From contig JAAXGQ010000015.1 in assembly GCA_012271265.1 (NCBI GenBank), forward strand, positions 6,153 through 70,152: a DNA stretch of 64,000 nucleotides, given 5' to 3'. Shown here piece after piece: positions 5,633-60,531 of this stretch; position 1 is the first letter of the stretch; every line of letters begins with the position of its first letter. The notes beneath the pieces were generated by a model. That model had not been told where the DNA came from, did not search any database, and saw nothing but the letters and a program-made list of their open reading frames with translations. Both the position numbers and the translations under genes were made by a program. This DNA comes from Vicinamibacteraceae bacterium. GTDB lineage: Bacteria > Acidobacteriota > Vicinamibacteria > Marinacidobacterales > Marinacidobacteraceae.

Positions 5633-5704
5633 CTGGGGCGGAAGGATTCGAACCCTCGTAGACCGGAACCAAAACCCGGCGCCTAGCCACTCGGCCACGC
5701 CCCA
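5633..5704 (-). tRNA. tRNA-Gln (anticodon UUG)
   Basis: Reverse complement reads TGGGGCGTGGCCGAGTGGCTAGGCGCCGGGTTTTGGTTCCGGTCTACGAGGGTTCGAATCCTTCCGCCCCAG. It folds as a cloverleaf: 7-bp acceptor stem, anticodon stem CCGGG/TCCGG, loop TTTTGGT (anticodon TTG), T-loop TTCGAAT. Architecture is very close to E. coli tRNA-Gln. Confidence 0.8.
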
Positions 5705-5719
5705 TCGGCCTGGAGGAGA

Positions 5720-37232: not shown

Positions 37233-37571
37233 ATGACGCGACGCCTGGTGGTCCGCTGGGCCCTTTCCCTGCTGGCGCTCGCGCCTTTTGCGCGCGTCCG
37301 GCTCTTCGCCCAGGCCCGGAGTCTTGATGAGGGGGACCGCGCAACCCTCCGCGCCCTGGCGAGAGTGGCGCTGCCGAGTCCACTCGGCGACGACGGCGCA
37401 AGGCGTGTCCTGGGAGTGTTCGGCAGGCTCGCCGGTGACGGCGCCATCCTGGACACCCAATCGTTGACGTTCTCTGCGCTCACGCTGCGTTCGGCGGAAG
37501 AGACCGGGCATGATCTCGGTTGGACGCCGGCGGCGACGGAACTCCCCCTTCCCGGATCGGAGGCGCCGTGA
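37233..37571 (+). CDS. hypothetical small secreted protein
   Basis: 112-aa ORF with a signal-peptide-like N-terminus in the 450-bp gap between the amidohydrolase paralogs; no recognisable motifs, so coding status is uncertain. Confidence 0.3.
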   Translation: MTRRLVVRWALSLLALAPFARVRLFAQARSLDEGDRATLRALARVALPSPLGDDGARRVLGVFGRLAGDGAILDTQSLTFSALTLRSAEETGHDLGWTPAATELPLPGSEAP

Positions 37572-37648
37572 ACCCGGTGGGGGACGCCGCCCGGTCCGCC
37601 CGCCCGCCGAAAGCGGCAGTGGATTCCTGCACTCGGGAGGTAAGCCTC

Positions 37649-38974
37649 ATGGGGCTCCGTGGAACGAAATCCACGCTGGTGGTGCTCGGGCTGGCGCTCG
37701 CGGCGCCCGCGGGCGCGCAGCAGCGACTCGCCCTGGTGGGCGGGATGCTGCTCGACGGGTACGAGGTTCCCCCTGTGCACCACGCCGCGGTCGTGATCGA
37801 GGGCGCCCGGATCGTCGCCGTCGGCCGGGCCGCCGAGATCGAGATTCCGGACGACGCGGAAGTGATCGATACGAGCGGGCGGGTCATGCTGCCGGGCCTG
37901 ATCGACCTCCACGCCCACTTGGCCATCCTCGGACACGGCTCCTACGGCCGCTGGTTTCCCTGGCTCGAGGAGGAGGGCATCTCCATCGAAGAGGTCATGG
38001 AAATCTCGGCGAAGCAGCTTCTTCTCGCCGGCGTGACCACCGCCGTGGATCTGGCGGCCCCGCTCGAGGCCAGCATCTCGCTGCGGGACCGGATCGCGCG
38101 CGGAGAAATCCCCGGCGCCCGGATGCTGATGAGCGGTCCCTGGATCACCAGCGCGGTCCGGTTCTGGCCGCCGGAGTTTCAGATCGGTGTGTCGTCTCCC
38201 GAGGAAGCGTCCGAGGCGGTGGAGCGTCTCGCCGCTGCGGGCGTGGACGTGATCAAGGCGTGGGCCGGCCTCACCCGAGAGGACTACCAGGCAATCGCGG
38301 ACACCGCGCACGAACACGGCCTGCGGGTACACGCTCATGTCTACGGGCCGGAGGAGGTCAGGAACGCGCTCGAGACTGGTATCGACGTGCTGACCCACGC
38401 CGGATCGGCCGGCACGCCCCCCTATGAGCCGGAGCTGGTCCGCGACATCGTGGTCGCCGGCCGGCCGGTCGTGATCACCGGCGCCCACCGCGTCTGGGTG
38501 TTCCCGGCGACGGTGCAGTTCCCCGAGCGCCTCCAGGATCCGAGGCTCCGCCAGGACCTGCCGGCGGTGATGTACGAGGAGTTCCAGCGCAGCTTCGAGA
38601 ACTTCCACACCCTCGGCTACTTCCAGACCACGCCCCGGCAGATGTTCTTCGGCGACGCCTCCCTCGGCCAGTTCATCGACGCCGGGGCGGTCATGGGGAT
38701 GGGCACCGATTCGGGGACGCCGCTGAACTTCCACACCGAGGCGCTCTGGCGCGAGATCAAGGCCCATGTGGACCTCGGGATGGCGCCGCTGGACGCCATC
38801 GCCGCAGCGACCCGCATCAACGCCCGGATTCTGGGCATGGGCGACGAGCTGGGAACGATCGAGGTCGGCAAGCTCGCGGACATCATCGTGATCGACGGCG
38901 ATCCTCGGTTCGACATCATGGCCCTCGACGACCCCGTGCTGGTCGTCAAGGATGGCCGCCCGTACCGGCGCTGA
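37649..38974 (+). CDS. amidohydrolase-family metallo-hydrolase, secreted (paralog 2)
   Basis: Signal peptide MGLRGTKSTLVVLGLALAAPAGAQ; the same HxH / HAHVYGPEE / GMGTDSG motifs as paralog 1. Confidence 0.8.
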   Translation: MGLRGTKSTLVVLGLALAAPAGAQQRLALVGGMLLDGYEVPPVHHAAVVIEGARIVAVGRAAEIEIPDDAEVIDTSGRVMLPGLIDLHAHLAILGHGSYGRWFPWLEEEGISIEEVMEISAKQLLLAGVTTAVDLAAPLEASISLRDRIARGEIPGARMLMSGPWITSAVRFWPPEFQIGVSSPEEASEAVERLAAAGVDVIKAWAGLTREDYQAIADTAHEHGLRVHAHVYGPEEVRNALETGIDVLTHAGSAGTPPYEPELVRDIVVAGRPVVITGAHRVWVFPATVQFPERLQDPRLRQDLPAVMYEEFQRSFENFHTLGYFQTTPRQMFFGDASLGQFIDAGAVMGMGTDSGTPLNFHTEALWREIKAHVDLGMAPLDAIAAATRINARILGMGDELGTIEVGKLADIIVIDGDPRFDIMALDDPVLVVKDGRPYRR

Positions 38975-42827: not shown

Positions 42828-45797
42828 ATGCCGAGTTTCATTCTTCGGACCCTCGCTGCGAGCACGATCCTGCTCGTCGCGGCCGCCCCGGCCCTGGCCC
42901 AGGGACAGGGGACGCTGACCGGGAGAATCACCGATCCCGAAGGATTGGCCCTCCCCGGGGTCGTCGTAACCGCCGAGAGCGATTCCATGCTGGGAACGCG
43001 CTCGGCGGTTTCCGACGGGGAAGGCGGCTACCGCCTAACCTCCCTCCCGCCCGGCATGTACACGCTGCTGGCGGAACTCTCGGGTTTCGCCCCGCTCCGG
43101 CGCGAAAACATCCAGGTCCGCACCGGCTCGAACTTCCGGGTCGACCTGCAGATGGCTCTCGGAAACGTCGAAGAGACCGTCACGGTCACGGCGGAGAGCC
43201 CCATGATCGAGATGAAGAAGCCGGGCCAGGTGATCACGATCGACGGAGACTTCCAGCGTGACGTCCCCGTCCAGGCGAGAAAGAACTGGACCGACTTCGT
43301 CGAACTCACTCCCGGGGTGAACGCCCGCAACTGGGACGACGGGAGCGGCCGGATGACGTTCTTCGGACATGGAACCGAGCACTTCCACCACGTGATGCAG
43401 CTCGAGGGACAGATCGCGAGCGCCTACGACGACAGTCAGTTGCCCTACATCCAGTTGACCACCGAAGCGATCGCCGACGCCGAGATCAAGACGGTGGGAG
43501 CGTCCGCCGCCGACCCGATGGGCAACGGCCTCATCATCAACATCATCACGAAGAGCGGCGGCAACGAGTTCGACGGCTCGGTCGGGATCGGCTACCAGCC
43601 CATCGACTGGAACAGCGACAACACCGGGGGCAAGGTCAGCTACAGCGACGACGTCGAGCGTTTCTTCAACCAGGACGAGCTTCCCTCGGCGGCGGGAACC
43701 CCGACGCTCCAGGAGGTGCAGCAGTTCGATTACGCCGTCGGCGGGCCCCTCGCCCGGGACAGGGCATGGTTCTTCCATACCGGCCGGCTGGCGCGGAACT
43801 CCGCCGAGATCAGCCGTACCGGGCGCGAGGTGGAGATTCTCGAATCGTTCGCGCCGGGGGTGGACCTCTTCCCGAACGTGTTCGAAGGTTTCTGGCCTTA
43901 CACGAAGGTCACGGCGCAGCTCGGGGCAAACCACAATTTCTCCGGCTATCACCAGTTCGACGTCGCCCACCTTTCGAGCGCCCGCGAGTACCACACCGTC
44001 AATTACAACTTCAACAAGACCGGCGGCCACCTGCTCGGCGGCAAGGTGACCTCGGTCTGGGGCCCGACGCTGACCTCCGACATCACCGTATCCATCAACG
44101 ACAAGCGCTCCGAGACCTCCATTGACACGATCAACGATCTGGGACTTTCGGGACCGCAGATGACGATCCACGAGGAAGCGCTCCCCTCGGCTGGAGTGCT
44201 CGTGGGCAGCGGCCGGATCCTGGAGATCGGAAACCGGACGACCTACGGCGAGGATCCCTCCTCCATGCTGGTCATCCGGACGGATTTCACGCTCTACCGG
44301 GGCAGTCACGAAATCCAGACCGGAATCTTCGCGGCGCCCCGCAACCGCCGGACGAGTTACACGCAGTACCTGAACGGGGGCCACAATCAGGAAAACCACT
44401 ACCTGGTGGACCCGAACGATCCCGGCGGCGGACACCTGCCCTTCCACCGGCGCATCTATGACACCACGGAAATCAAGAGCCGGGAGGCGCGGGACCGGAA
44501 CATCGCCTTCTACCTCCAGGACGCCTGGAGCATCACCGACCGCCTGAACATCACTGCCGGCCTCCGCGTGGACTTCGTGAACCGTTATGACGCGATCAAC
44601 GGAATCACCCGGATGAACAGCACCGAGCTGGGGCCGCGGGTGGGCTTCTCCTGGTCCGTGACCGAGGACGCCCGGAACGTGGTGCGCGCCAGTTTCTCCC
44701 GGGTGCACGAGCAGGTGAACGGCCGCGATGCGGTGACGAGCTTCGGCTCCTCGGCCCGCGTCGGGTGGCGTGACGAGTACGACGTGGACTTCGACGGTGT
44801 CTTCGAGACCGTGGTGGCGACGCCGCCGCGGGCCGGAGAAATCGCGAACTACGAGTTCGACCCGACCCTGCGCCAGCCGCGCACCGACGAGTTCGTGGCC
44901 GGCTACCGCCGTCAGTTCGAGGGCGAGCTGGCGCTCGATGTGGCCTACATCTACCGGAACATCAGCGACGGCTACGCCACCGTCGACGTCAACGGCATCT
45001 ATCCCAGCGGACCCTACATGCCCTTCGGGGGATACGGGCTCATTGATCCCAACCGGGGTCAGCTCAACCAGTTGACGAACAACACCTGGATGGACCTCGT
45101 CTATCACGCCCTGGAGGTCGTGGTCGCGAAGCGGATGTCCAACAACTGGCAGTTCATGGGGAGCTTCAGCCGGCAGTTTCACCATCAGGCCGGCACCTGG
45201 AACCCGACGGATCGCGCCGGATTCATTCAGCCGGACGCCTTCGAGAACACGAAGTGCATCTGGATGCCGCGCGGCCTGCGCGACGACAACAGCTACCAGC
45301 TCGGCTCGAACTCCACCTATTGCCCCACCTGGCGGGATTACTCGCTCCGCCTGGGCGCCACCTACCAGGCGCCCTTTGACGTCCTGCTGACGGGTTCCTA
45401 CACCCACCAGGCGGGTCCCTGGTCGGGCGCTATCTTCACCCGGATCGACGAGCCCGACCCGACGTTCGGGCCCGCGAGGGTGACGCTCGCGAACGGCAGC
45501 ACCCAGCCGAACCCGCTGGCGGACCGGACCCGCTTCATGTTCGACACGAGGGACATCGGCCAGGTCAAGCTCGGAGACACCAGGCGTTTCTCGGTCAAGG
45601 TGGCGAAGATCTTCGACATCATGGGACCGAATCAGAACATCGAGCTCTCGCTCCAGGTCTTCAACCTCCTGAACCTGGGAGACTTCCAGCAGTACACCTA
45701 CAACGGGGCGAACGCGGTGTTCAATCCGAACTTCCTGCAGCCCCGGAACCGGCAGTCCGGACGCGGTCTCCAGTTCAACGCCATGTTCCGCTTCTAG
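42828..45797 (+). CDS. TonB-dependent receptor with carboxypeptidase-regulatory-like N-terminal domain (paralog 2)
   Basis: Signal peptide and GTLTGRITDPEGLALPGVVVTAES...YRLTSLPPGMYTL (CarbopepD_reg-like); the beta-barrel ends in FRF. Confidence 0.85.
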   Translation: MPSFILRTLAASTILLVAAAPALAQGQGTLTGRITDPEGLALPGVVVTAESDSMLGTRSAVSDGEGGYRLTSLPPGMYTLLAELSGFAPLRRENIQVRTGSNFRVDLQMALGNVEETVTVTAESPMIEMKKPGQVITIDGDFQRDVPVQARKNWTDFVELTPGVNARNWDDGSGRMTFFGHGTEHFHHVMQLEGQIASAYDDSQLPYIQLTTEAIADAEIKTVGASAADPMGNGLIINIITKSGGNEFDGSVGIGYQPIDWNSDNTGGKVSYSDDVERFFNQDELPSAAGTPTLQEVQQFDYAVGGPLARDRAWFFHTGRLARNSAEISRTGREVEILESFAPGVDLFPNVFEGFWPYTKVTAQLGANHNFSGYHQFDVAHLSSAREYHTVNYNFNKTGGHLLGGKVTSVWGPTLTSDITVSINDKRSETSIDTINDLGLSGPQMTIHEEALPSAGVLVGSGRILEIGNRTTYGEDPSSMLVIRTDFTLYRGSHEIQTGIFAAPRNRRTSYTQYLNGGHNQENHYLVDPNDPGGGHLPFHRRIYDTTEIKSREARDRNIAFYLQDAWSITDRLNITAGLRVDFVNRYDAINGITRMNSTELGPRVGFSWSVTEDARNVVRASFSRVHEQVNGRDAVTSFGSSARVGWRDEYDVDFDGVFETVVATPPRAGEIANYEFDPTLRQPRTDEFVAGYRRQFEGELALDVAYIYRNISDGYATVDVNGIYPSGPYMPFGGYGLIDPNRGQLNQLTNNTWMDLVYHALEVVVAKRMSNNWQFMGSFSRQFHHQAGTWNPTDRAGFIQPDAFENTKCIWMPRGLRDDNSYQLGSNSTYCPTWRDYSLRLGATYQAPFDVLLTGSYTHQAGPWSGAIFTRIDEPDPTFGPARVTLANGSTQPNPLADRTRFMFDTRDIGQVKLGDTRRFSVKVAKIFDIMGPNQNIELSLQVFNLLNLGDFQQYTYNGANAVFNPNFLQPRNRQSGRGLQFNAMFRF

Positions 45798-45876: not shown

Positions 45877-46149
45877 AGGCGAATTCCATGCCTGGTGGCG
45901 CAACAGGTCCGGATCGCCTGCGGCGTCCGCGTTTCCGCGAACTGACAGGATGTGTTCGGCGATGGCCGCAGGATGGAAAGCACGTCGTACTGGGTGCTTC
46001 TGCTCGTGCTGCCGGCTGTGTTGGAACTGAATCCCGAACTCATCGTGGAAAGAAGATGCAGGGCGCGTATCGTGGGACTCACCATCAGCATCACGTTTCC
46101 CTGATTGCCAGCGTGCTGTGGTGGGTGCGGGCGGGATAGCGGCTCGGAC

Positions 46150-46320
46150 GGCGGCGAGCGGGCGATCTCCGGCGCCCGGAGCGGGCTTCCTGGGCGGGCG
46201 CCGTCGAGGCGGGCGGGCTCGCGGACATAATCGTCATCTCCGGCGATACCCGGCTCGACATCATGGCCCTCGACGACCCCGTGCTGGTGGTCAAGGACGG
46301 CCGGCCGTACCGGCGCTGAC
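46150..46320 (+). pseudogene. 3' remnant of an amidohydrolase gene (segmental duplication fragment)
   Basis: Translates to ...AVEAGGLADIIVISGDTRLDIMALDDPVLVVKDGRPYRR*, matching the C-terminus of 37649-38974 (..IEVGKLADIIVIDGDPRFDIMALDDPVLVVKDGRPYRR*); upstream sequence is degenerate. Confidence 0.75.
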
Positions 46321-46339
46321 GAGTGAGGGAGGGAGAACC

Positions 46340-48262
46340 ATGAAGCTCGTGAGAACCGCGTTCGGGGTCGCGGTGGCGACGCTGCTGCTTTCCGTCTCCG
46401 ACGCCCACGCCCAGCGGGCCGACTGGGAAACCCACGGCGGCGATCCGGGGGGGATGAAGTACTCGTGGCTCGACGAGATCAACCGGGACAACGTGGACCG
46501 GCTCGAAGTCGCGTGGACCTGGGAGACCGGGGAGGAACCCCTCTCCATGGCCAGCTCTCCCATCCGGGGCGAACAGGTCGCGCCCGGGAAGTTTCAGGGG
46601 ACTCCGGTCGTCCTGGACGGGGTCATGTACGTCAGCACCTCCTACAGCCGCGTGGCTGCGCTCGACGCGGCCACCGGAGAGGAGCTCTGGGCCTACGACC
46701 CCCGCGCCTACGAGTGGGGGAATCTCCCGCGCGGCTGCCGTTTCTGCCACCGAGGCGTCGCCGTGTGGACCGACGGCGAGGAGCGGCGCGTCTTCATCAA
46801 CAGCCGCTGGATGCTGGTCGCGCTCGATGCGCTGACCGGGGAACCGATCGCGTCGTTCGGCAGCGGCGGGGTCGCGGACCTCACCGAAAACCTCATGTGG
46901 GAGACGAACCGGCTCCTGTACACGAACACCTCACCGCCGGTGGTCTACAAGGACCTCGTCATCGTCGGCAGCGGTGTTCCCGACAACCGGATCTTCCGGA
47001 GGAACCCGCCGGGCGACGTACAGGCGTTCCACGCCCGCACCGGGGAGTTCGTCTGGAGCTTCCACACGATTCCCCAAGAGGGGGAATACGGCAACGACAC
47101 CTGGGAGGACGGCTCGGCGTCCTACACGGGATCGGCCAACGTCTGGGCGCCCTTCACCGTGGACGCCGAGCGCGGACTCGTCTATCTGCCGGTCAGCACG
47201 CCGAACAACGACTACTACGGCGGCCATCGAAAGGGGGACAACCTCTTCGCGGAGTCCATCGTCTGTCTCGACGCCAACACCGGCAGGCGGGTCTGGCACT
47301 TCCAGACCGTGCGTCACGGCATCTGGGACTACGACCTTCCGGCGCCGCCCAACCTGATCACCATCGAGGTGGACGGCAGGACGATCGACGCGGTGGCGGT
47401 CGTGGGGAAAACCGGATTCGTCTACGTCTTCGACCGGGTCACCGGCGAGCCGGTGTGGCCGATCGAGGACCGCCCGGTTCCGGCCAGCGACGTGCCCGGC
47501 GAGCGCGCCGCGACGACCCAGCCCTACCCCACGAAGCCGCCGCCGTTCGGCCGGCAGGGGTTCACCACGGACGATCTGATGGACTTCACCCCCCAACTGA
47601 AGGCGAGGGCGCTCGAGGTCGTCAAGGACTATCGCCTGGGCGCCATGTTCACCCCGCCCTCGCTGGAAGGGACGGTCATCCTGCCGGGAATCTGGGGCGC
47701 CGGGAACTGGGGCGGAGCGGCGTTCGATCCGGGTACCGGGACGCTCTACGTCAAGGCGACCAACTGGCCCTCGGTGTTCCGGGTGGCGCCGCCCGATTCG
47801 CCTCTGGTGGAGGCCGACTACCGGGGCTCCGGCTTCGGCGCCCGGCTGGAACTCGTCCGTGGCGTCCCGGTGCACAAGCCCCCCTACGCCACCCTCACCG
47901 CCCTCGACCTGAACGCCGGCGAGCTGCTCTGGCAGATCACCCTCGGCGATTCGCCCCAGATCCGCAATCACCCGTTGCTGAGGAACCTGGATCTTCCGCA
48001 GCTCGGGGTGGCGCCGCCGCAGCACGGACAGTCCGCGGCGCTCGTGACCGAAGGGGGACTCCTCTTCATCAGCGCCGCGAGCGACCATCTCTACATCTTC
48101 GACAAGGCGGACGGCGCGTTGCTCCGGGAGATCCCGCTGGGCGGCGGCGGGTTCGGCAACCCGGTCACCTACCTCGCCGGTGGACGCCAACTGGTGTCGA
48201 TCGCGACATCGCAGTCGGACGGATCCGAAGCGAAGATCCTCACCTTCCAGTTGCCCCGGTAG
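46340..48262 (+). CDS. PQQ-dependent quinoprotein dehydrogenase (paralog 2)
   Basis: Signal peptide MKLVRTAFGVAVATLLLSVSDAHA and the same tryptophan-docking repeats (ELWAYDP, FVWSFHT, RVWHFQT, ELLWQIT); about 60% identical to 22427-24376. Confidence 0.85.
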   Translation: MKLVRTAFGVAVATLLLSVSDAHAQRADWETHGGDPGGMKYSWLDEINRDNVDRLEVAWTWETGEEPLSMASSPIRGEQVAPGKFQGTPVVLDGVMYVSTSYSRVAALDAATGEELWAYDPRAYEWGNLPRGCRFCHRGVAVWTDGEERRVFINSRWMLVALDALTGEPIASFGSGGVADLTENLMWETNRLLYTNTSPPVVYKDLVIVGSGVPDNRIFRRNPPGDVQAFHARTGEFVWSFHTIPQEGEYGNDTWEDGSASYTGSANVWAPFTVDAERGLVYLPVSTPNNDYYGGHRKGDNLFAESIVCLDANTGRRVWHFQTVRHGIWDYDLPAPPNLITIEVDGRTIDAVAVVGKTGFVYVFDRVTGEPVWPIEDRPVPASDVPGERAATTQPYPTKPPPFGRQGFTTDDLMDFTPQLKARALEVVKDYRLGAMFTPPSLEGTVILPGIWGAGNWGGAAFDPGTGTLYVKATNWPSVFRVAPPDSPLVEADYRGSGFGARLELVRGVPVHKPPYATLTALDLNAGELLWQITLGDSPQIRNHPLLRNLDLPQLGVAPPQHGQSAALVTEGGLLFISAASDHLYIFDKADGALLREIPLGGGGFGNPVTYLAGGRQLVSIATSQSDGSEAKILTFQLPR

Positions 48263-50376: not shown

Positions 50377-52092
50377 TCAGCGCTCGCGGTTGAGCCGGGC
50401 GAGCGCCTCCGAGGCCGGTGCGAATCCGGGCTCGACGCGCAGGCTTGCTTCGAAAGCGGTCCGCGCGGCCGTCCGATCGCCGCTGGCCGCGAGGAAGACC
50501 CCCAGGCGGTAGTGCGCCTCCGCATCTCCTGGCCGCGCGGCCACGACCCGCGTCTGGACCTCGATCGCGGCGCCGTGTTCTCGCGCAAGATGGCGAGTGT
50601 GGGCGAGCTCGGCAAGCAGGTCGGCGTTTTCGGGGAATCGGATCCGCGCCGCTTCGAGGCTCTCCAAGGCCTCGGCCAGATCCCCGGTTTCCCGCAGCAG
50701 CAATCCCAGCGTGTAGCGGGCCGTCCCGAGCAGATCGGCATGGCCAGCCGCCTCGGCAAGCGCGATGGCGAGCCGTTCCTGCTCCAGGGCTGCTGCGGGG
50801 TCACCGAGCCGGAAGAGGGCCACCGACAGGAGGTGGCGCGCCTCTCCCGACTCCGGCGCCAGGACGGTGGCTTTCCGGAGGTGGGAAAGGGCATCCTCGA
50901 GCTCGCCGGCCTCGCCCAGCAGGACGCCGAGACGAAGATGGGCCCGCCCCCGCGACGGGTCGCGCGCCAGGGCGTCCCGGAACGCCGCCGCGGCAGCGGC
51001 CGGGTGGCCGCGCGCCTCCAGCGCGGCGCCGAGGGCGATGTGGACGTCAGCCTGCCCCGGATCGAGCCGGGCCGCTGCTTCGAGGTGCAGCACCGCTCCG
51101 TCGAGGTCTCCGAGGCGGCCGAGCAGGACCCCCAGATTCGCTCGCGCCGTGGCGAGATCCGGTTCCAGCGCCACGGCGCGCTGGTAGTGAAGCCGGGCGT
51201 CCTCCGGGTGGCCCGCCTGTTCGAGCGCGGCGCCGAGGGCGTTGTGGGCGTCGGCGGATCCGGGGTCGGTGTCCACGGCCTCCCTCAGGGCCCGGACCGC
51301 CGCTTCGTAACGGCCCTGGTCCAGGAGTTCCGTCCCCGCCGCGAGGGCCGCGCGGGAACCCCGTCCGCGCCGGGCGAGGATCTCCGGCGGCGCCTCGATC
51401 GCAGGTCGACGCGCCGGGCCGCGACGCGACGCGGCGAGGTGTTGCCGGGCCCGCTCGCTGTCTCCCAGGCGCTCGAATGCGAGGGCGGCGGTGTAATGCA
51501 GATTCGGGTCGTCCGGGCGCGCCGCAAGGGCCTTTTCCACGAACACCACGGCTTCCGCGTGGGCGCCGCGGCGGAGGGCGAGGGTCGCCATGCCCCGAAG
51601 CGCCGGGGCGTTGTCTCCGTCCCGTCCCAGAGCCGCCTGGAAATGACGCCGGGACTCGTCAAGCCGCCCCCGGCGCAGCTCGAGTTCCGCGAGAGTGGCG
51701 CGCGCCGCGACGGATCGCGCGTCGGCTTCGACGGCCCGTCGCGCCTTCGCCAGTGCCTGCGTTTCATCTCCCGCCTCGGCCGCGCGGTGCGCGTCGAGCC
51801 GATACCAGCGGGCGTCGTCGGGAGCAAGAGCCTGGGCATTGCGGTAGGAGGTCGCGGCCGCCTCCAGGAAGCCGTGGGCGTGGAGCAGCATGGCGAGCCG
51901 ACCGTGCGCCTCGGGGTCCTGAGGGCGCGCGCGGAGCGCCTCGCGGGCGGACGCGAGCTGGGTCCGGGCCGATGGCTCGATCGATGCGAGCCGTTCCTCG
52001 GCAACGGCGGGGCCGATTGCCTCGGGGGGTCCCTCCGCACAATCGAGGCCGCCAAGGCAGGCCGCAACCGCCAGCAGAGTTCTTGCCGTCAT
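50377..52092 (-). CDS. TPR-repeat lipoprotein
   Basis: Lipoprotein signal LLAVAACLGGLDC, then about 14 consecutive TPR-like 34-mers (Ala-rich, AxxxxxALxxxP patterns). Confidence 0.7.
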   Translation of the reverse strand: MTARTLLAVAACLGGLDCAEGPPEAIGPAVAEERLASIEPSARTQLASAREALRARPQDPEAHGRLAMLLHAHGFLEAAATSYRNAQALAPDDARWYRLDAHRAAEAGDETQALAKARRAVEADARSVAARATLAELELRRGRLDESRRHFQAALGRDGDNAPALRGMATLALRRGAHAEAVVFVEKALAARPDDPNLHYTAALAFERLGDSERARQHLAASRRGPARRPAIEAPPEILARRGRGSRAALAAGTELLDQGRYEAAVRALREAVDTDPGSADAHNALGAALEQAGHPEDARLHYQRAVALEPDLATARANLGVLLGRLGDLDGAVLHLEAAARLDPGQADVHIALGAALEARGHPAAAAAAFRDALARDPSRGRAHLRLGVLLGEAGELEDALSHLRKATVLAPESGEARHLLSVALFRLGDPAAALEQERLAIALAEAAGHADLLGTARYTLGLLLRETGDLAEALESLEAARIRFPENADLLAELAHTRHLAREHGAAIEVQTRVVAARPGDAEAHYRLGVFLAASGDRTAARTAFEASLRVEPGFAPASEALARLNRER

Positions 52093-52099
52093 CGCGCCT

Positions 52100-53800
52100 T
52101 CACCGGCCGGACCCGGCGCCCTCGACGAGTTCGTTCTCCCGATTCACGACCAGGTCCTGGAAGAACTCCGTGGCGGCGTCCGGCCAGATGACCTCCACTC
52201 CGGAGACCTCGGTGTCGGCATCGAGCCCGAAGTGGAGGCGGGGATCGCTCGCGCTGGCGTAGCTGCCGTCGCTCCCCACGACCTTCTCCACCCGTTCTCC
52301 CCCCTGCCGGACCAGGGTGACCCGGGCGCCGAACGCGCGCGGCTCCCCCTGGCTGCGTTGCAGCTTGATCGAGATCCAGTGGCGGCGCGCCCCGACCTGG
52401 TTCAGGAGCAGCCGGGTCGGTCCCTCGTTGTTGGAGACCAGCACGTCCACATCGCCGTCGCCGTCCACATCGCCGAAGGCGGCGCCACGGCTTACTTCGA
52501 CGAGTGCCGCCGTCGGGCCGGAAATCATCGGGACCGCCTCGAAGCGGCTCCCGTCCCCACGGAAGAGCTGGTTGGGCTCGGCGTAGCGAGAGACGCCGGT
52601 CCGCTCCGGCGGTCCAAGCGCCACGGCGCCGTTCGCCACGAACAGATCCGGGAACCCGTCGTTGTCGAAATCGAGCCACTGCACGCCGAACGCGGTCGCG
52701 GCGAGGCTCGGATACCCCAGTCCCCGAGGGAAGGTCGCGTCCTCGAACCAACCGCCTCCCTGATTTTCATAGAGCGTGTTGGTCTCCTCGCGAAGGTGGG
52801 TGACGAAGATGTCGGGATCGCCATCCCGGTCGAAATCGTCCACCGCGATCCCCATCCCGGCCTCGGCGGCCCCGTCGCCGTTGAGCGCGACGCCGGCGAA
52901 CAGCGCCACGTCTTCGAAGCCGCCGTTCCCCCGGTTCCGCCAAAGCTGATTCTCGTTTCCGTCGTTCGCCACGTAGATGTCGAGCCAGCCGTCGCCATCG
53001 AAGTCCACGGCCGCGACGCCGAGTCCGCTTCCGTAGGCCCGATCGATGCCCGCGGCGCCGGTGACGTCGACGAAAGTCCCATCGCCCCGGTTGCGGTAGA
53101 GGATGTCCACCTGCGGGTCGAAATTGTCAGGGTGGCAATAGTCCCGCTCCCCGGTGGGGCGGCAGACCGGATTCTCGCTGACCCGAAACTCCACGTAGTT
53201 GGCGACAAAGAGATCGAGATGGCCGTCGCGGTCGAAATCGAAAAAGGCCGCGCTGGTCCCCCAGCGGTCGTCATCCACGCCGGCGGCGCTTCCGACTTCG
53301 CTGAAGGAGCCGTCGCCGTCGTTCCGGTAGAGGGCGTTCGGGCCGAAGTTCGTCACGAAGAGGTCGAGGAAGCCGTCGTTGTTGTAGTCGCCGGTGGCGA
53401 CGCCCATGCCGTATCCCCGGTGGCCGACGCCGGCGCTGGCGGTCACGTCCGCGAAGATCGGCGGCCTCCCGGCCGCGCCCGGGAGCAGGGCGTTCCGGTA
53501 CAGGCGATTCTCCGCTGTTGCCCCGGATTCGAGGGAGCCGCTCTGCACCAGATAGATGTCCAGGTCCCCGTCGTTGTCGTAGTCCACGAGGGCGCCCCCA
53601 CTTCCCATGATCTCGGGCAGGCGGAACTCTCCGGCGGCGCCGCTCCGGTGCATGAAATCGAGTCCCGCTTCGGCGGACACATCGCGAAAGACGGAAGCGC
53701 CGCCGGCGTCCGACGAAGGTCCTTCCGCCTGTCGTCCCGGATCGTCCCCGCATGCGGCCATCGCCAGCCATCCGAGAAAGACGGGACGAAGCGCCGACAC
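52100..53800 (-). CDS. CRTAC1-family protein (FG-GAP/VCBS repeats + ASPIC/UnbV domain), lipoprotein
   Basis: Repeated DxDxDGxxD calcium-binding FG-GAP motifs (DYDNDGDLDIYL, DYNNDGFLDLFV, DFDRDGHLDLFV, DFDGDGWLDIYV, DFDRDGDPDIFV, DFDNDGFPDLFV, DVDGDGDVDVLV) plus a C-terminal UnbV/ASPIC domain. Confidence 0.78.
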   Translation of the reverse strand: MSALRPVFLGWLAMAACGDDPGRQAEGPSSDAGGASVFRDVSAEAGLDFMHRSGAAGEFRLPEIMGSGGALVDYDNDGDLDIYLVQSGSLESGATAENRLYRNALLPGAAGRPPIFADVTASAGVGHRGYGMGVATGDYNNDGFLDLFVTNFGPNALYRNDGDGSFSEVGSAAGVDDDRWGTSAAFFDFDRDGHLDLFVANYVEFRVSENPVCRPTGERDYCHPDNFDPQVDILYRNRGDGTFVDVTGAAGIDRAYGSGLGVAAVDFDGDGWLDIYVANDGNENQLWRNRGNGGFEDVALFAGVALNGDGAAEAGMGIAVDDFDRDGDPDIFVTHLREETNTLYENQGGGWFEDATFPRGLGYPSLAATAFGVQWLDFDNDGFPDLFVANGAVALGPPERTGVSRYAEPNQLFRGDGSRFEAVPMISGPTAALVEVSRGAAFGDVDGDGDVDVLVSNNEGPTRLLLNQVGARRHWISIKLQRSQGEPRAFGARVTLVRQGGERVEKVVGSDGSYASASDPRLHFGLDADTEVSGVEVIWPDAATEFFQDLVVNRENELVEGAGSGR

Positions 53801-54256: not shown

Positions 54257-55621
54257 ATGCGCGCAGGTGTCTGGCTCAATCGCAGGGCATTCCTGAGAGG
54301 GGCCGGGACGGCCGCTCTCGCTGGCGCGGCGACCTCGGGAGCGTCGCTGTGGACTCCGGGCCGCGCCGCGGCGTCGCCGAGGCAGGACGGCTCGGGCGTG
54401 TTCGATTTCGACACGCCCTACGACCGGATAGGCACCGACTGCTCGAAGTGGGACACGATCATCGAGCGCCACGGCGCCGAGAACATCCAGGTGGCGATGG
54501 GCGTCGCGGACATGGATTTCCGCTGCGCCCCGGCCATCACCGAGGCCCTGGCGGAGCGCGTCCGCCACGAGAACTGGGGCTACCTCAAGATGCCGGAGGA
54601 CTTCTTCCCGGCGATCGTTGACTGGAACAGGAAGCGGCACGGCCTGGAAATCAATCCGGACCTGATGGCGCTCTCCGACGGTGTCCACCCGGCCCTCATC
54701 GCAGCGCTCAAGGCGTTCGCGCGGCCGGGCAGCAAGGTGCTTCTGACCACCTCGACCTACAGCGGCTTCTACATGGACCTGCGCGAGTCCCACACGCTCG
54801 CCGAGGAGAGCCCGCTGATCATCGAGAACGGGGTGCACCGGCTGGACTTCGACGACCTGGAGTCCCGGATCTCGCAGGAGACCGACGCCCTGATCCTCTG
54901 CAACCCGCAGAACCCCACGGGGAACTGCTGGTCGCCGGAAGACCTGATGCGGCTCGGCCAGCTCTGCCTCGAACGGCGGGTCGTGGTGCTCGCCGACGAG
55001 ATCCACTGCGACTTCGTGACGAAGGGCAACAAGTACACGCCGTTCGCCACCCTGCCGGACCAGGCGGTCGTGGACAACAGCGTCACGTTCCAGTCGGGCA
55101 GCAAGACCTTCAGCCTGGCGGCGATGAAGGTGGCCTGGTTCCATTCGACGAATCCGGAGTACTTCGCGAAGGTCCAGGCCCAGCACATGGCGCAGACGAA
55201 CACCCTCGGGGTCGTCGCCCACCACGCCGCGCTTCGAGGCGGCGGGGAGTGGCTGGATCAGCTCCTGGCCTATCTCGACGGCAACCACGATTTCGTCGAG
55301 CAGTACCTGCGGGAGCGGATCCCCGCGATCCAGTACACCAAGGCTCAGGGCACCTACCTGGCGTGGTTGAACGTCAGCCAGATCGGCGAGGCGATCGGCG
55401 CGGCGGAGAAGGCCGCGACGGCCAGCGAAACCGAGGAGGACGAGGTGACGCCGGAGGACATCGTGGTCCGCTGGCTGGTCGAAAACGCCGGCGTCTACAC
55501 CAACCCGGGTTCCAACTACGGGCCGGGTGGCGAGGGCTGGGTGCGCATGAACCTGGGGACCTCGCGACGGCTCATCCAGCTCGCGCTCGACAACATCGCC
55601 GAGGCGGTGGCGGACCTCTAG
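54257..55621 (+). CDS. PatB/MalY-family PLP-dependent C-S lyase (cystathionine beta-lyase-like) with Tat signal
   Basis: Twin-arginine signal MRAGVWLNRRAFLRGAGTAALAGAA; aminotransferase class I/II fold with the Lys region VTFQSGSKTFSLAAMKVAW. Confidence 0.8.
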   Translation: MRAGVWLNRRAFLRGAGTAALAGAATSGASLWTPGRAAASPRQDGSGVFDFDTPYDRIGTDCSKWDTIIERHGAENIQVAMGVADMDFRCAPAITEALAERVRHENWGYLKMPEDFFPAIVDWNRKRHGLEINPDLMALSDGVHPALIAALKAFARPGSKVLLTTSTYSGFYMDLRESHTLAEESPLIIENGVHRLDFDDLESRISQETDALILCNPQNPTGNCWSPEDLMRLGQLCLERRVVVLADEIHCDFVTKGNKYTPFATLPDQAVVDNSVTFQSGSKTFSLAAMKVAWFHSTNPEYFAKVQAQHMAQTNTLGVVAHHAALRGGGEWLDQLLAYLDGNHDFVEQYLRERIPAIQYTKAQGTYLAWLNVSQIGEAIGAAEKAATASETEEDEVTPEDIVVRWLVENAGVYTNPGSNYGPGGEGWVRMNLGTSRRLIQLALDNIAEAVADL

Positions 55622-55658
55622 GCGCTGGCCGGGTGCGCGAGTTGAGGTCGCGAGGCTG

Positions 55659-55934
55659 ATGCGCCGTCGGGACTTCGCGGCGCTGGCGGCCTCGGGCGCG
55701 GCCGCCGCACTCTGGCAGCAGGCCTGTCGGGAGGTGGAGGACACGGGATCCCTCTCGGCGGCCACGGTGGGCACCCTCCTCGATCACCAGGGACCTCGCG
55801 GGATCTACGAGGATCCGGCGGAACTCGAGCGGCTGCGGCGGGCCGTCGAGAACATGGTCGGAGTGCAGCGGACGCTTCGGGACTTTCCCCTGGACCCCGA
55901 CGAGCCGCCGGCGACGATCTTCCCGAGGGGCTGA
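55659..55934 (+). CDS. small twin-arginine-signal protein (91 aa), putative Tat-partner subunit for the downstream amidase
   Basis: MRRRDFAALAASGAAAALW carries an RRxF Tat motif. Its stop lies 4 nt before the amidase start, and the amidase itself has no signal peptide. Confidence 0.5.
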   Translation: MRRRDFAALAASGAAAALWQQACREVEDTGSLSAATVGTLLDHQGPRGIYEDPAELERLRRAVENMVGVQRTLRDFPLDPDEPPATIFPRG

Positions 55935-55937
55935 GCC

Positions 55938-57407
55938 TTGGAAGAATCCGACCTGTTCCGGACGGTCGCGGAACTGGCGGCGGGGCTGCGCGACGGGTCC
56001 TTCCGTTCCGTCGAGCTGACCGAGGCGTATCTCGATCGGGCGGAGGAACTCGATGTCCCTCCCTTCGATCTGCCGAGCGAGCCCCGCGAAGACCACGGCG
56101 GCAAGCTGGCCACGATGGTCACGATCGCGCGCGACCACGCTCTCGAAGCAGCGGAGCGCGCCGACCGTGAGCTTGCCGCCGGGCAGGCGCGAAGCCTCCT
56201 CCACGGAATCCCCTACGGAGTCAAGGACCTGCTCGACACCCGGGACATCCGCACGACGTGGGGATCCGGCATCTTCCGGGACCGTATACCAGACCGAAAC
56301 GCCGCGGTCGTGGATCGGCTCGAAGAGGCCGGCGCCGTGATGATGGCCAAGAACTCTCTCGGGGAGTTCGCCGGCGGCAACACCAGCTCGGCGCTGAACC
56401 CCTGGAAGCTGGACCGGACCAGCTTCGGGTCGTCGAGCGGGACCGTCTCCGCGGCGGTCGCCGGCCTCATCGGGTTCGGGATCGGGACGGAGACCGGCGG
56501 CTCCATCGTCTTTCCCGCGTCCGCGGTCGGAGCGTCCGGACTCCGGCCGACCTTTGGGCGGGTGAGCCGGTTCGGGTGCATGGCGCTTTCCTGGAGCCTC
56601 GACAAGATCGGGCCGGTGGGGCGCTCCGCCGAGGACTGCGGGCACGTGCTCGAGATCATCGCCGGGAGGGATCCCCGAGACACCTCGACCGCCGACCGGC
56701 CCTTTGTCTTCCGGGCCGATCCCGGAGCGATGCGGGGCCGGCGGCTGGGAGTGCACCGGGCCGAGTTCCTGCTGTCGCAGTCGGAGACGACCCGCCGGGT
56801 GTTCCAGGAGGCGCTGGATGCCTTCGCCGCGATGGGCGTGGAGATCGAGGACATCGAGCTGCCGCGCTTTCCGACCGGAGCGCTCTTCACCACGATCGTC
56901 ACCGTCGAGAGCGGCACGAACTTCCGCTCGCTGTTCGACGACGGACGCGCAGCGGAGATGTTCTCGTTCAACGAGGACCGGCGGGCCGGCTGGATGGCGG
57001 GCCGGATGCTGCCGGCGGCGGACTACCTCACCGCCCAGCGGATCCGCAACCAGCTCGTCCGGGAGGCTGACGAGATCCTCTCCCGCTACGACGCGGTGAT
57101 CGCCCCAACCTGGCCAAACGGGGCGGCGCTCCGGGTGGTGCGGGACGGGTGGCCGATCCCGGCGCGCGACGAGTGGGAGCCGCCGGACGAGGTGAGCGGG
57201 GCGACGCCGCGGCTCAACTACATCGCGAACCTGGTCGGGCACCCCGGCCTCGCTATCCCGTGCGGGTTCGACGAGGACGGGCTCCCGCTTTCTCTCCAGA
57301 TCGTCGGCTCCCCGATGGATGACCAGGCAGTGCTGGACTTCGGCATGGCGTTCCAGCGCGAAACCGACTGGCACCGGCGCCGCCCCTCGTTCCCGTGGCG
57401 GGAATGA
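55938..57407 (+). CDS. amidase-signature (AS) family amidase
   Basis: GIPYGVKDLLDTRDIRTTWGS and the Gly/Ser-rich AS motif GGSSSGTVSAAVAGLIGFGIGTETGGSI with the Ser-cisSer-Lys catalytic arrangement. TTG start at 55938. Confidence 0.85.
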   Translation: MEESDLFRTVAELAAGLRDGSFRSVELTEAYLDRAEELDVPPFDLPSEPREDHGGKLATMVTIARDHALEAAERADRELAAGQARSLLHGIPYGVKDLLDTRDIRTTWGSGIFRDRIPDRNAAVVDRLEEAGAVMMAKNSLGEFAGGNTSSALNPWKLDRTSFGSSSGTVSAAVAGLIGFGIGTETGGSIVFPASAVGASGLRPTFGRVSRFGCMALSWSLDKIGPVGRSAEDCGHVLEIIAGRDPRDTSTADRPFVFRADPGAMRGRRLGVHRAEFLLSQSETTRRVFQEALDAFAAMGVEIEDIELPRFPTGALFTTIVTVESGTNFRSLFDDGRAAEMFSFNEDRRAGWMAGRMLPAADYLTAQRIRNQLVREADEILSRYDAVIAPTWPNGAALRVVRDGWPIPARDEWEPPDEVSGATPRLNYIANLVGHPGLAIPCGFDEDGLPLSLQIVGSPMDDQAVLDFGMAFQRETDWHRRRPSFPWRE

Positions 57408-57916
57408 AGAGCGCGGCCCCATCCGGGACGCGGCGGCTCGCGACGGCGGCGGTGCTCGGCTGTTACACGCTGCTGCTGGGCCTCATCGCCCTCAACAACA
57501 TCACCGATCCGGGGACCAACTGGCCCTTCGTCCAGCACGTGCTGGCGATGGACACCACCTTCGAGAGTCCACGGCTGACGTGGCGGGCGATCACGAACCC
57601 GATGCTGCAGGGGCTGGCCTACGCGGCGATCATCGCGACGCAGGCGGTCGCCGCCGGCCTGTGCGCGGTGGGGTTCGTCCGTCTCCTGCGACGGCGCGCG
57701 AGGCCCGGCGGCGAGTTCGAACGCGCCAAACGCGCGGCGATCCTGGGCGTCACGCTGTCGCTCGTCCTCTGGCTGGGGGGTTTCCTGGCCATCGGGGCCG
57801 AGTGGTTCGCGATGTGGCAATCGGAACGCTGGAACAGCTCCGAACCGGCGACCCGCTATCTGATCGCCGGCGGGATCGCCCTGCTGCTCCTCTTCCAGCG
57901 CGACGACCGCGCCTGA
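57404..57916 (+). CDS. DUF2165-like small integral membrane protein
   Basis: About 170 aa with 4 TM helices; its ATG overlaps the amidase stop (ATGA). Confidence 0.55.
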   Translation: MKSAAPSGTRRLATAAVLGCYTLLLGLIALNNITDPGTNWPFVQHVLAMDTTFESPRLTWRAITNPMLQGLAYAAIIATQAVAAGLCAVGFVRLLRRRARPGGEFERAKRAAILGVTLSLVLWLGGFLAIGAEWFAMWQSERWNSSEPATRYLIAGGIALLLLFQRDDRA

Positions 57917-57989
57917 GGCGCGGCCGGCTGCCGGTTGCACTCGTGCCGGATCAGGTCATAGGCTCCGGCGCGATCAGGAAGAGAGTCCC

Positions 57990-59315
57990 ATGACCGGACC
58001 GAAGGACGGGTTCACCCGGCGCGAGCTGTTGGCCGGCGCGGCCGGGTTTTCGCTGGCCTGCGCGGCTCGCTCGGCGAGCGAGCCCGAGTTCGACCTGCTG
58101 CTCCAGGGCGGCCACCTGATCGATCCCCGAAACGGGTTGAGCGCGGTCCGCGACGTGGCCGTGCACGAAGGCAGAGTGGCCGCGGTCGGGGAGGTCATCG
58201 ACCCCGGCCGGGCCTTCAAGGTCGTGAACTGCGAGGGGCTCCACGTCACGCCGGGGTTGTTCGACATGCACGTCCATGTGTTCGCGGGGACCAACGAACC
58301 GGGATCGCTGGTCGGCGACAGCAGCCTCTATCCGGACGGCCACACCTTCCACTCGGGCGTCACAACCGTTCTCGACGCCGGGTGCGCTGGCTGGCGGGAC
58401 TTCGAGGTCTTCCGGGAGACCGTCATCAGCCGCGCCCGGACGCGCGTGCTGGCGCTCCTCAACATCGTCGGCCGCGGGATGCGGGGCGGAGAGATCGAGC
58501 AGAACCGGAGCGACATGGAGGCCGCGCCGACCGCGGCTCTCGCGCGCGATCACGCCGATGTCATCGTCGGAATCAAGACCGCTCACTACGCGGCCCCGGA
58601 CTGGTTTGCGGTGGACGAATCGCTTCGGGCCGGAGACGCGGCGGGGCTTCCCCTGATGGTGGACTTCGGGGACGATCACCCGGAGCGCCCGCTCGAAGCC
58701 CTGCTCGGTGAGAAGCTCCGTCGGGGAGACATCTACACCCACTGTTACGCGGGGAACCGACGCGAGCTGCTCGCGGATGGCACGCCGAACCCGGGCCTCT
58801 TCGCCGGCCGCGAACGAGGCGTGCTCTTCGATGTGGGGCACGGCGGCCGCAGCTTCCGGTGGAGCGTGGCGGCGCGCTGTCTCGAAGCCGGTCTCCCGCC
58901 GGACGCGATTTCGACGGACCTCCACATCGGGTCGATGAACTCCGGCATGCACGATCAGATCACGACCATGAGCAAGTTCCTGGCGCTCGGGGAGACCCTG
59001 GAAGATGTGATCGCGCAATCCACCTGGAAGCCGGCCCTCGCTGTCGGACGCGAAGACATCGGACACCTGTCGGTCGGCGCGACAGCGGACATCGCGGTGC
59101 TCCAGAAAGAGACCGGCAACTTCGGTTACGTGGACAGCTTCGGCGCGCGCCAGGCCGGATCCGAACGACTGGCGGCGGAAATGACGTTCAAGGACGGCCG
59201 GCTCGAGTGGGACCGAAACGGGCGAGCCCGTGGGGACTGGCGCGAGCTCCCGCACGATTACGGAGAGCAGGGCGACGCGCGCTGGGACGGCATCCTCTAC
59301 CGCCAACGTTCGTAA
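57990..59315 (+). CDS. amidohydrolase-superfamily metallo-hydrolase (dihydroorotase/deacetylase-like) with Tat signal
   Basis: Tat motif TRRELLAGAAGFSLACA; GLFDMHVHVF (HxH) and further His/Asp ligands (DFGDDH, FDVGHGG). Confidence 0.78.
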   Translation: MTGPKDGFTRRELLAGAAGFSLACAARSASEPEFDLLLQGGHLIDPRNGLSAVRDVAVHEGRVAAVGEVIDPGRAFKVVNCEGLHVTPGLFDMHVHVFAGTNEPGSLVGDSSLYPDGHTFHSGVTTVLDAGCAGWRDFEVFRETVISRARTRVLALLNIVGRGMRGGEIEQNRSDMEAAPTAALARDHADVIVGIKTAHYAAPDWFAVDESLRAGDAAGLPLMVDFGDDHPERPLEALLGEKLRRGDIYTHCYAGNRRELLADGTPNPGLFAGRERGVLFDVGHGGRSFRWSVAARCLEAGLPPDAISTDLHIGSMNSGMHDQITTMSKFLALGETLEDVIAQSTWKPALAVGREDIGHLSVGATADIAVLQKETGNFGYVDSFGARQAGSERLAAEMTFKDGRLEWDRNGRARGDWRELPHDYGEQGDARWDGILYRQRS

Positions 59316-59331
59316 AGGGGAGGACGGAAAC

Positions 59332-60531
59332 ATGCCTGTGAAGATGACCCGGCGGCGCGTGCTGCAAGGCGGCGCCTCCGCCGCGGTGCTTGGAGCCGCG
59401 GCCTGCGGATCCGGGTCCGGGCCCGACGCCCCCGCAGCGCCGGAGGAGGTCTACCGGCGGCTGGGAATCGAGCCGGTGATCAACGGCATCGGCACGGTGA
59501 CAGTCCTGGGCGGGTCCATCATGCCGCCCGAAGTCACCGACGCCATGGTCGGGGCGTCCCGCAGCTTCGTGCCGCTTCCCGAGCTCCAGGAACGGGCGGG
59601 CGACCACATTGCCCGGCTGATCGGGGCGCCGGCCGCCATGATCTCGGCCGGGGCCGCCTCCGCGATGACCTGCGGGACTGCGGCGGCGATCGCCGGCGAC
59701 GACGACGGGAGGCTGCGGATGCTTCCGAACACCACGGGGATGAAGAACGAAGTGATCCAGCAGCGGGCCCACCTCACCGGCTACCAGGCCCAGATGGAAC
59801 TCGTTGGGGCGAAGATCGTCTGGGTGGAGACCCGCGGGGAACTGGAAGCGGCGATCAACGAGCGGACGGCCATGATGTTCTTTCTGAACTTCGCCGACCC
59901 TCGGGGCGAGATCGGCCGCGCCGAGTGGATCGAGGTGGCGCGGGCGCACGGCGTGCCCACCATGAACGACGCCGCCGCCGACATCCCGCCTCCGGAGCGT
60001 CTCCGCACCTACGTCGAAGAGGGGTTCGACATGGTCGCCTTCTCGGGTGGCAAGGGCCTCCGCGGCCCGCAGGCAACGGGACTCCTGCTCGGACGCCCCG
60101 ATCTGATCCAGGCTGCGCGCAGGGCGATCAGCCCGTTCGGCGGTATCGGCCGCGGCATGAAGGTGGGCAAGGAGGAGATCGTCGGCCTGGTGGCGGCGGT
60201 CGAGCGCTACGTCTCCCTCGACCACGACGCGGAGCGGCGCGAACTGGACGCTCGCGCCGCGTTGATTTCGGGGGTCCTGGGGAGCGTGAGCGGCGTCTCC
60301 CTCGAGACCCACGTGCCGGAGATCGCCAACCACGTCCCCCACGTGGTGGTGAGCTGGAGCGAGGGCGATCTGGGCGTGACGTCGGAAGAGGCGGTCGCCC
60401 GACTTCTGGAAGGGGATCCGCCGATCGCGGTCTCCCGTTCGGGAGAAGGACAGCTCCGCATCTCGACGTGGATGCTCCGTTCCGGCGAGGACGCGGTGGT
60501 CGCCGAGCGGGTCAAGGCCCTGCTCGGATAA
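59332..60531 (+). CDS. SelA-like / DgaE-family PLP-dependent enzyme with Tat/lipoprotein signal
   Basis: MTRRRVLQGGASAAVLGAAACGS combines a Tat motif and a lipobox. GIEPVINGIGTVTVLGGSIMPPEV and VAFSGGKGLRGPQATGLL (PLP Lys) are typical of the SelA-like DgaE (glucosaminate-6-P ammonia-lyase) family. Confidence 0.72.
   Translation: MPVKMTRRRVLQGGASAAVLGAAACGSGSGPDAPAAPEEVYRRLGIEPVINGIGTVTVLGGSIMPPEVTDAMVGASRSFVPLPELQERAGDHIARLIGAPAAMISAGAASAMTCGTAAAIAGDDDGRLRMLPNTTGMKNEVIQQRAHLTGYQAQMELVGAKIVWVETRGELEAAINERTAMMFFLNFADPRGEIGRAEWIEVARAHGVPTMNDAAADIPPPERLRTYVEEGFDMVAFSGGKGLRGPQATGLLLGRPDLIQAARRAISPFGGIGRGMKVGKEEIVGLVAAVERYVSLDHDAERRELDARAALISGVLGSVSGVSLETHVPEIANHVPHVVVSWSEGDLGVTSEEAVARLLEGDPPIAVSRSGEGQLRISTWMLRSGEDAVVAERVKALLG
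60431..60531. repeat. direct repeat A': intact 3' end of the SelA-like gene, duplicated after the second insertion
   Basis: tctcccgttcgggagaaggacagctccgcatctcgacgtggatgc...gagcgggtcaaggccctgctcggataa is about 85% identical to 61991-62090. Confidence 0.8.

Follow-up and report, generated by a model that had tools for sequence, protein, structure and literature searches.

How an amidase that carries no signal peptide comes to lie among enzymes marked for export is the question raised by a cluster of six co-oriented genes on the plus strand (positions 54257-60531, as defined by gene models and by Pfam and NCBIfam matches) of a 64,000-nucleotide stretch of DNA from a Vicinamibacteraceae bacterium (assembly GCA_012271265.1, contig JAAXGQ010000015.1), which is referred to here in its full length as the window. 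The amidase gene is directly preceded by a gene for a protein of only 91 amino acids with two arginines near its N-terminus. In contrast to the signal-less amidase, the operon's remaining soluble enzymes, of which there are three, namely a C-S lyase, an amidohydrolase and a SelA-like enzyme dependent on pyridoxal 5'-phosphate (PLP), have conserved twin-arginine translocation (Tat) motifs. A first-pass annotation of this DNA had proposed that the amidase is a Tat hitchhiker, a folded passenger carried out of the cytoplasm by the signal of its small neighbour. The analysis described here makes this the probable explanation, with the two proteins forming a heterocomplex of the GatC/AtzG type and with export inferred from sequence. 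The elements at issue are the following.

55659 to 55934, plus strand: the 91-amino-acid escort protein, no Pfam or NCBIfam family
55932 to 55940, plus strand: junction TGA-GCC-TTG, from the stop of the small open reading frame (ORF) to the amidase start, by direct reading of the sequence
55938 to 57407, plus strand: amidase-signature (GatA-like) amidase of 489 amino acids, signal-less, proposed Tat passenger (PF01425)

Sequence comparison indicates that the small protein is a member of a real family with a two-part architecture, a putative Tat signal followed by a GatC-like clamp. The signal occupies residues 1 to ~23, with the arginine pair at codons 3-4, and the GatC-like domain residues ~29-91. 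Neither the protein nor its family profile gave a significant match in Pfam, in NCBIfam or, by HMMER, in the PDB, and its matches in a protein atlas were all unnamed clusters of the "hypothetical protein" kind. The sub-threshold PDB matches of its N-terminus were the Tat signal peptides of NapA and FdhA. A total of 82 close homologues of ~91 amino acids each was found, and an exhaustive HMMER search of 1.8 billion representative proteins, with E up to 0.001, extended the family to 60 clusters (50% identity), which with few exceptions are free-standing proteins of 85-110 amino acids; no member fused to an amidase was present in that set. Among 39 diverse members with a mean column identity of 28%, R3, R4 and P84 were the sole invariant residues, F6 and F88 being nearly so, and the pattern RRx[FL] was found in 65 of 66 close homologues. 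The cysteine at position 23 (Cys23, in "LWQQAC") is invariant in all 66 of these, and a cysteine occurs in that region in only 16 of the 39 members that represent the broad family. Two database proteins, P0258 (323 amino acids) and P0234 (161 amino acids), are longer and match the small protein only in its final 30-45 residues, which form their C-terminus behind unrelated sequence; these are probably chimeric gene calls or misassemblies.

The amidase was found to match PF01425 at 270.6 bits (cut-off 27). Its best relatives in the PDB are GatA (E 2e-56), peptide amidase and AtzE (6c62), the NCBIfam models for AtzE reach 197-207 bits against cut-offs of 426-461, and all of the 46 homologues compared keep the residues of the Lys/cis-Ser/Ser triad (K96, S165/S166 and S189). 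The initial description of the protein as lacking a signal allowed for a cryptic one that might be encoded from an upstream start. This is excluded, as the TGA that ends the small ORF (55932-55934) lies in frame 3 nucleotides upstream of the TTG start at 55938, leaving no room for an upstream extension, and the N-termini of 14 of 14 orthologues align at the same place without a signal. The close junction of the two genes had been recognized correctly, but the spacing of 4 nucleotides then given is a difference of coordinates; a single codon (GCC), that is 3 nucleotides, intervenes.

Conservation of the small ORF beside amidases elsewhere, on which the hitchhiker proposal had been made to depend, was seen in every locus examined. 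In each of the 20 loci from related genomes the amidase comes immediately after the small gene and shares its strand, and in a scan of species-representative genomes it stands directly before the amidase in 67 of 67 loci; the latter scan used the close family only, so that its loci are close relatives, and the two sets overlap in genomes. An amidase also follows the small gene in distant relatives, in which the small proteins are 44-50% identical (L021, L022), and in three loci (L024-L026) in which they match the family profile at E ~1e-13. The 67 loci are labelled Acidobacteriota/Vicinamibacteria ("Ca. Marinacidobacterium"), Gemmatimonadota/Longimicrobiales and Gammaproteobacteria, and many of the isolate names among them seem to resemble those of sponge-associated bins. 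The identity of the pair is 60-87% across metagenome-assembled genomes labelled Acidobacteriota, Gemmatimonadota and Gammaproteobacteria (L078-L144). Such similarity across phyla suggests horizontal spread within one habitat, with mis-binning as the possible alternative. As a separate observation, a sub-family found at L027-L031 has the order reversed, a signal-less amidase being followed by a 90-amino-acid Tat-signal protein ("SRRELF...YTAC"); at L028 this protein is followed by an ORF which, by eye and with no domain scan, reads like a serine recombinase.

The likeness of the small protein to GatC emerged by way of larger amidases. In relatives, as well as in the genome of the bacterium itself, proteins of ~570 amino acids were found which combine an RR signal, an "LW" motif behind the hydrophobic region, a GatC-like segment and an amidase domain in one chain, and more than 100 similar proteins of about this length are annotated merely as amidase or GatA. 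The paralogue in the same genome (L033:102-1799, minus strand, contig C237) has 566 amino acids and shows the motifs RRNFL and "ALWAC", the GatC-like segment and the amidase domain; this segment reaches 16.3 bits with Pfam GatC (E 0.036). In profile comparisons with hhalign, the mature part of the small family aligned to 56 N-domains of fused amidases with a probability of 95.1, an E-value of 3.1e-8 and a score of 43.1 (control maximum 14.8). The fused N-domains in turn aligned to 28 bona fide GatC sequences with a probability of 96.9, an E-value of 1.4e-10 and a score of 55.5 (control maximum 17.7). Compared with GatC directly, the small family gave a probability of 41.5, an E-value of 2.7e-4 and a score of 26.8, which was reached by none of 100 column shuffles (maximum 17.2), and the mature part of the small protein aligned with GatC in the expected register. 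Reversed profiles scored ~9-13 in the three comparisons (~13 in the direct one with GatC). The GatC alignment was made without one sequence, L056 of genome G107, and no claim depends on this genome or on G083. A deep alignment of fused N-domains was needed for the link, the small-family profile against one fused sequence alone being weak (probability 7%). At another locus (L022:2188-4906), a fused Tat-signal amidase of 591 amino acids (2188-3960) is followed by a Cys-less homologue of the small protein and then by an amidase shortened to 205 amino acids; ~300 nucleotides downstream of the shortened amidase there is an ORF that reads like a transposase (by eye, with no domain scan).

Structure prediction weakly suggests that the small protein binds the amidase. 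The modelled complex had an ipSAE (interaction prediction score from aligned errors) of 0.57, compared with 0.00 for the best control, and three prediction runs shared at least 94% of contacts. The small partner was predicted with a pLDDT (predicted local distance difference test) of at least 75 when placed with the amidase and of 37 when placed beside an unrelated protein. In the reference sets, 58 of the 80 solved complexes attained the ipSAE mark, as did 2 of the 110 mismatched pairs, but only 7 of the 80 attained it with a value of 0.60 or under, along with both of the mismatches that passed. As few solved complexes and both mismatches fall in this range, the verdict was one of "weak support": the complex envisaged earlier is predicted, but at a score that mismatched pairs also reach.

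Taken together, these observations would be consistent with the following course of events. The clamp domain would wrap the folding amidase in the cytoplasm, in the manner of GatC on GatA and of AtzG on AtzE; TatBC would then recognize the assembled heterocomplex via the signal of the small subunit; and the heterocomplex would be exported whole by the hitchhiker mechanism. In the periplasm it would join the three other Tat-exported enzymes of the operon, possibly tethered through Cys23, a candidate site of lipidation. AtzE is insoluble without AtzG, its non-catalytic, GatC-derived subunit (PMC6219798), and this precedent explains a need for such an amidase to leave the cytoplasm in folded form. 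The genome encodes Tat machinery (TatC at 224 bits and two TatA/B proteins) and the lipoprotein enzymes Lgt and LspA. The hitchhiker idea has held on both of the points where it had been thought vulnerable, the adjacency of the genes and the possible upstream start, and it is strengthened by the GatC-like identity of the carrier.

The complex is likely to deamidate an organic amide in the periplasm, with a carboxylate and ammonia as products, as part of the scavenging of nitrogen or sulfur. Within 3.5 kb of the pair, 18 of the 42 loci not labelled Acidobacteria have a homologue of DctQM, a component of tripartite ATP-independent periplasmic (TRAP) transporters, and 14 of the 42 have a PALP enzyme. 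In one Longimicrobiales locus (L106), the TRAP transporter genes DctP and DctQM (327-3345, plus strand, with the binding protein DctP at 327-1379) lie just upstream of the pair, and a gene for a PALP-family PLP enzyme (5254-6264, minus strand) is convergent downstream of it. The TRAP context in these loci fits a periplasmic conversion of amide to carboxylate which would then be followed by import.

Several points weigh against hitchhiker export, among them that export and binding are alike inferred from sequence and modelling. The complex score falls within the range rated weak, and since solved complexes of the GatCA type exist, likeness to them may contribute to it. The small protein has no match to Pfam GatC (PF02686), even at E up to 10, HMMER found no match from it to the GatC or AtzG chains of the PDB, and with the direct hhalign probability as low as it is, the link to GatC rests on a transitive step. 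Because the direct Pfam test fails, the protein is called GatC-like here and is not filed under PF02686. The loci are related to one another, and the adjacency counts are therefore not independent events. At the putative signal itself, "WQQAC" fails a lipobox rule in the style of PROSITE PS51257 at position -3, both here and in 51 of 66 close homologues. The curated hidden Markov model for Tat signals, TIGR01409, has no match to the small protein; nor has it one to the amidohydrolase, and it gives 16.4 bits for the C-S lyase (cut-off 16.7) and 12.2 bits for the SelA-like enzyme.

The absence of a match to TIGR01409 also favours what appears to be the most serious alternative, which is nevertheless considered unlikely. 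According to this, the small protein is indeed a subunit of the GatC kind, yet the complex never leaves the cytoplasmic side; the RR N-terminus would be an uncleaved membrane tether or the non-functional relic of a signal, with the amidase active in the cytoplasm. Known GatC and AtzG complexes are cytoplasmic (PMC6219798), and the hydrophobic region of the small protein is short and rich in alanine. However, the twin arginines and one proline alone are invariant in a very divergent family, which is not expected of a relic; the homologous fused amidases have the same type of signal; and three of the enzymes encoded alongside have Tat targeting. Moreover, it is Tat signals, and not membrane anchors, that typically have a short hydrophobic region rich in alanine.

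Whether the region as a whole serves one pathway depends on the other genes of the cluster and on its surroundings. The remaining members of the cluster are as follows.

54257 to 55621, plus strand: PatB/MalY-like PLP C-S lyase that has a twin-arginine signal at its N-terminus (NRRAFLRG); PF00155 and TIGR04350
57395 to 57916, plus strand: DUF2165 small integral membrane protein; PF09933, E 1e-53
57990 to 59315, plus strand: PRK09237-family amidohydrolase/deacetylase with Tat motif TRRELLAG and lipobox FSLAC; NF006689
59332 to 60531, plus strand: SelA/DgaE-superfamily PLP enzyme with Tat motif TRRRVLQG and lipobox LGAAAC; TIGR01437 and PF03841

All of the genes described in the first-pass annotation are present at its coordinates and on the plus strand, but their number is six and not the five that it counted. 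The G+C content of the window is ~70%, as a result of which many of its ORFs are spurious; the six named genes are real nonetheless. The region was reproduced with zero differences, junction included, in an independent metagenome run, and the stretch occurs in runs that bear the label of a coded host organism as well as in the coral-reef metagenomes of a second study. A scan for sigma-70 promoters and intrinsic terminators returned nothing exceeding chance, and three RNA-Seq runs under the host's label placed no reads on the stretch, which makes them no test of its expression.

The Tat signals attributed to the C-S lyase, the amidohydrolase and the SelA-like enzyme are borne out by the conservation of their motifs in orthologues. 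For the C-S lyase (PF00155, E 3e-34; TIGR04350 PatB, 323.9 bits against a cut-off of 340 with a full-length alignment) the motif NRRxFL[KR]G was found in 10 of 10. The amidohydrolase (NF006689/PRK09237, 384.9 bits, cut-off 371) has [ST]RRx[LF]LAG in seven of eight orthologues and TRREVLIG in the eighth, so that RR is present in all eight, and the Cys is present in six; it also passes the PROSITE-style lipobox rule, a feature that can be added to the earlier description. The SelA-like enzyme passes the same rule, and TRRxxL[QR]G together with a lipobox occurs in 7 of 7 orthologues. While its description as a SelA-like PLP enzyme with Tat signal and lipobox holds, its placement in the DgaE family does not: at 180.8 bits with TIGR01437 (cut-off 385.3), 173.7 with NF047797 (cut-off 600) and 28.6 with PF03841, it is by sequence a relative within the SelA superfamily only, outside the DgaE family cut-off. 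The DUF2165 gene overlaps the 3' end of the amidase gene by 13 nucleotides. Among the loci compared it was seen in the window only, and the corresponding locus in each of 14 related genomes lacked a match; on account of this absence it looks like a lineage-specific insertion.

Of 11 same-family genomes, 10 have the C-S lyase, the small gene and the amidase as a group, with the C-S lyase directly before the small gene. In 8 of the 11 the region fetched also contains the amidohydrolase, and in 7 it contains the DgaE-like gene. Loci with the labels Acidobacteria/Acidobacteriota, Vicinamibacteria or Ca. Marinacidobacterium were the only ones to show the context of C-S lyase, amidohydrolase and DgaE-like gene; those labelled Gemmatimonadota and Gammaproteobacteria share only the pair of small gene and amidase.

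This distribution bears on a broader proposal made earlier, by which the whole region, with M14/S10 peptidases and TonB receptors included, would be a dedicated pathway for sulfur- or amino-sugar-containing peptides. The proposal now seems improbable, as outside the Acidobacteria-labelled lineage nothing but the pair is shared, often with a TRAP transporter, and none of the upstream M14/TonB genes is syntenic with the cluster in the 11 same-family genomes. Of the genes that inspired it, an M14 peptidase and two TonB-type receptors do lie 8.5-21 kb upstream of the cluster, the receptors (32704-35700 and 42828-45797) having CarboxypepD_reg domains, the window contains two further amidohydrolases upstream (35820-37193 and 37520-38974), and the cluster has both C-S and C-N cleaving enzymes. 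However, TPR and FG-GAP/ASPIC genes on the opposite strand intervene just upstream of the cluster (50377-53800), by which it can be seen to begin a unit of its own. The substrates suggested at the time, lanthionine/cystathionine peptides or glucosaminate, find no support, and the DgaE-like score is far below the family cut-off.

It could further be argued that the small ORF and the amidase are one gene, split by a TGA that is read through or that arose by recent nonsense mutation, whose functional product would be one fused Tat-signal amidase. In the window only the TGA and one codon stand between the two ORFs, which are in the same frame; fused Tat-signal amidases occur naturally; and in the wider scan 37 of 56 loci have a gap divisible by 3, and 60 of 66 have TGA as the stop. 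Yet in 19 of the 56 loci the frame differs, 4-nucleotide overlaps included, and the other stops, TAA and TAG, occur three times each. The commonest arrangements are a gap of 3 nucleotides (35 loci) and a 4-nucleotide overlap (10 loci). Among the 20 loci of related genomes the spacer ranges from an ATGA overlap to 19 nucleotides, the relative frame varies and all three stops are seen; across relatives it extends from the 4-nucleotide overlap up to 41 nucleotides. Varying frames and stop codons of this kind point to two coupled genes, and it was on these that the split or read-through gene was rejected. In addition, all homologues terminate at the same residue at 63-87% identity, the last part of the small ORF contains a Shine-Dalgarno-like motif (GAGGGG), placed 7 nucleotides upstream of the amidase start, and the family has, as mentioned, no fused member among the 1.8 billion proteins. 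The stop is not an assembly error, since the contig of the independent run that spans the junction (54991-56393) has it without differences. This alternative is accordingly given very little credence, and the shared frame and the predominance of TGA, as features of sequence, would fit descent of the pair from a fused Tat-signal amidase that underwent fission, or read-through on occasion. Just as hard to credit is the export of the small protein alone for an unrelated periplasmic role of its own, with adjacency reflecting co-regulation only, for although it has no annotated family and its binding rests on prediction, it is GatC-like by homology, adjacent to the amidase in 67 of 67 loci with tight coupling, and ordered in the model only next to the amidase.

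Hitchhiker export of a hydrolase on a GatC-like carrier would differ in several respects from what has been described before. To our knowledge, the Tat hitchhikers described so far are redox enzymes with complex cofactors, which force folding in the cytoplasm, and the subunit that bears the signal is itself a functional cofactor protein. For HybO-HybC (hydrogenase 2), DmsAB and PaoABC, PMC4273604 describes a signal on one subunit and assembly before export, for which Rodrigue et al. (1999) is also cited. The pair reported here resembles these in having one subunit with a twin-arginine signal and a partner without, but its passenger is a cofactor-free hydrolase and its carrier a clamp of ~65 residues with no evident catalytic role.

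As regards the amidase side, AtzG-AtzE, the 1-carboxybiuret hydrolase of Pseudomonas sp. ADP, likewise has a small GatC-derived subunit encoded directly upstream of a GatA-like amidase, and there too an amidase-signature enzyme acts on a small-molecule amide and not on tRNA. AtzEG is a heterotetramer. No export is reported for it in PMC6219798, whereas here the small subunit has an invariant RR signal, usually with a Cys after it. In comparison with GatCAB, GatA is the best solved relative of the amidase and the mature part of the small protein aligns to GatC, but no GatB was found among the neighbouring genes of the pair, which lies within an operon of exported catabolic enzymes and is not a transamidosome. 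The fused amidases of ~570 amino acids possess the same modules (Tat signal with "LW" motif, GatC-like domain and amidase domain); in the present case, however, the first two form a separate gene, and the amidase domains are only ~35-38% identical. In the literature, no paper was found that combines Tat hitchhiking with a GatC-like amidase partner, each being known separately.

We lean slightly towards a wider interpretation, in which the small protein represents a widespread, unannotated class of Tat carriers, each a GatC-derived clamp with a twin-arginine (possibly lipoprotein) signal. Cofactor-free amidases would be obligate passengers, since their folding would have to take place in the cytoplasm and around the clamp. 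The two-gene module would also have spread horizontally in marine, probably host-associated, Acidobacteriota, Gemmatimonadota and Gammaproteobacteria. If this is true, an obligate clamp subunit that assembles before transport would be a second reason for the use of Tat, next to the cofactors of the redox enzymes, and the carrier would be a minimal one, in which ~65 residues have binding and targeting as their only roles. It would also give a testable function to a "hypothetical protein" family of ~60 clusters at 50% identity, many amidases annotated as GatA would probably be periplasmic catabolic enzymes, and the small protein could serve as a natural compact tag for the export of folded partner proteins.

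Elsewhere in the window, two full-length dehydrogenases dependent on pyrroloquinoline quinone are encoded at 22427-24376 and 46118-48262 (PF01011, ~630 bits each).

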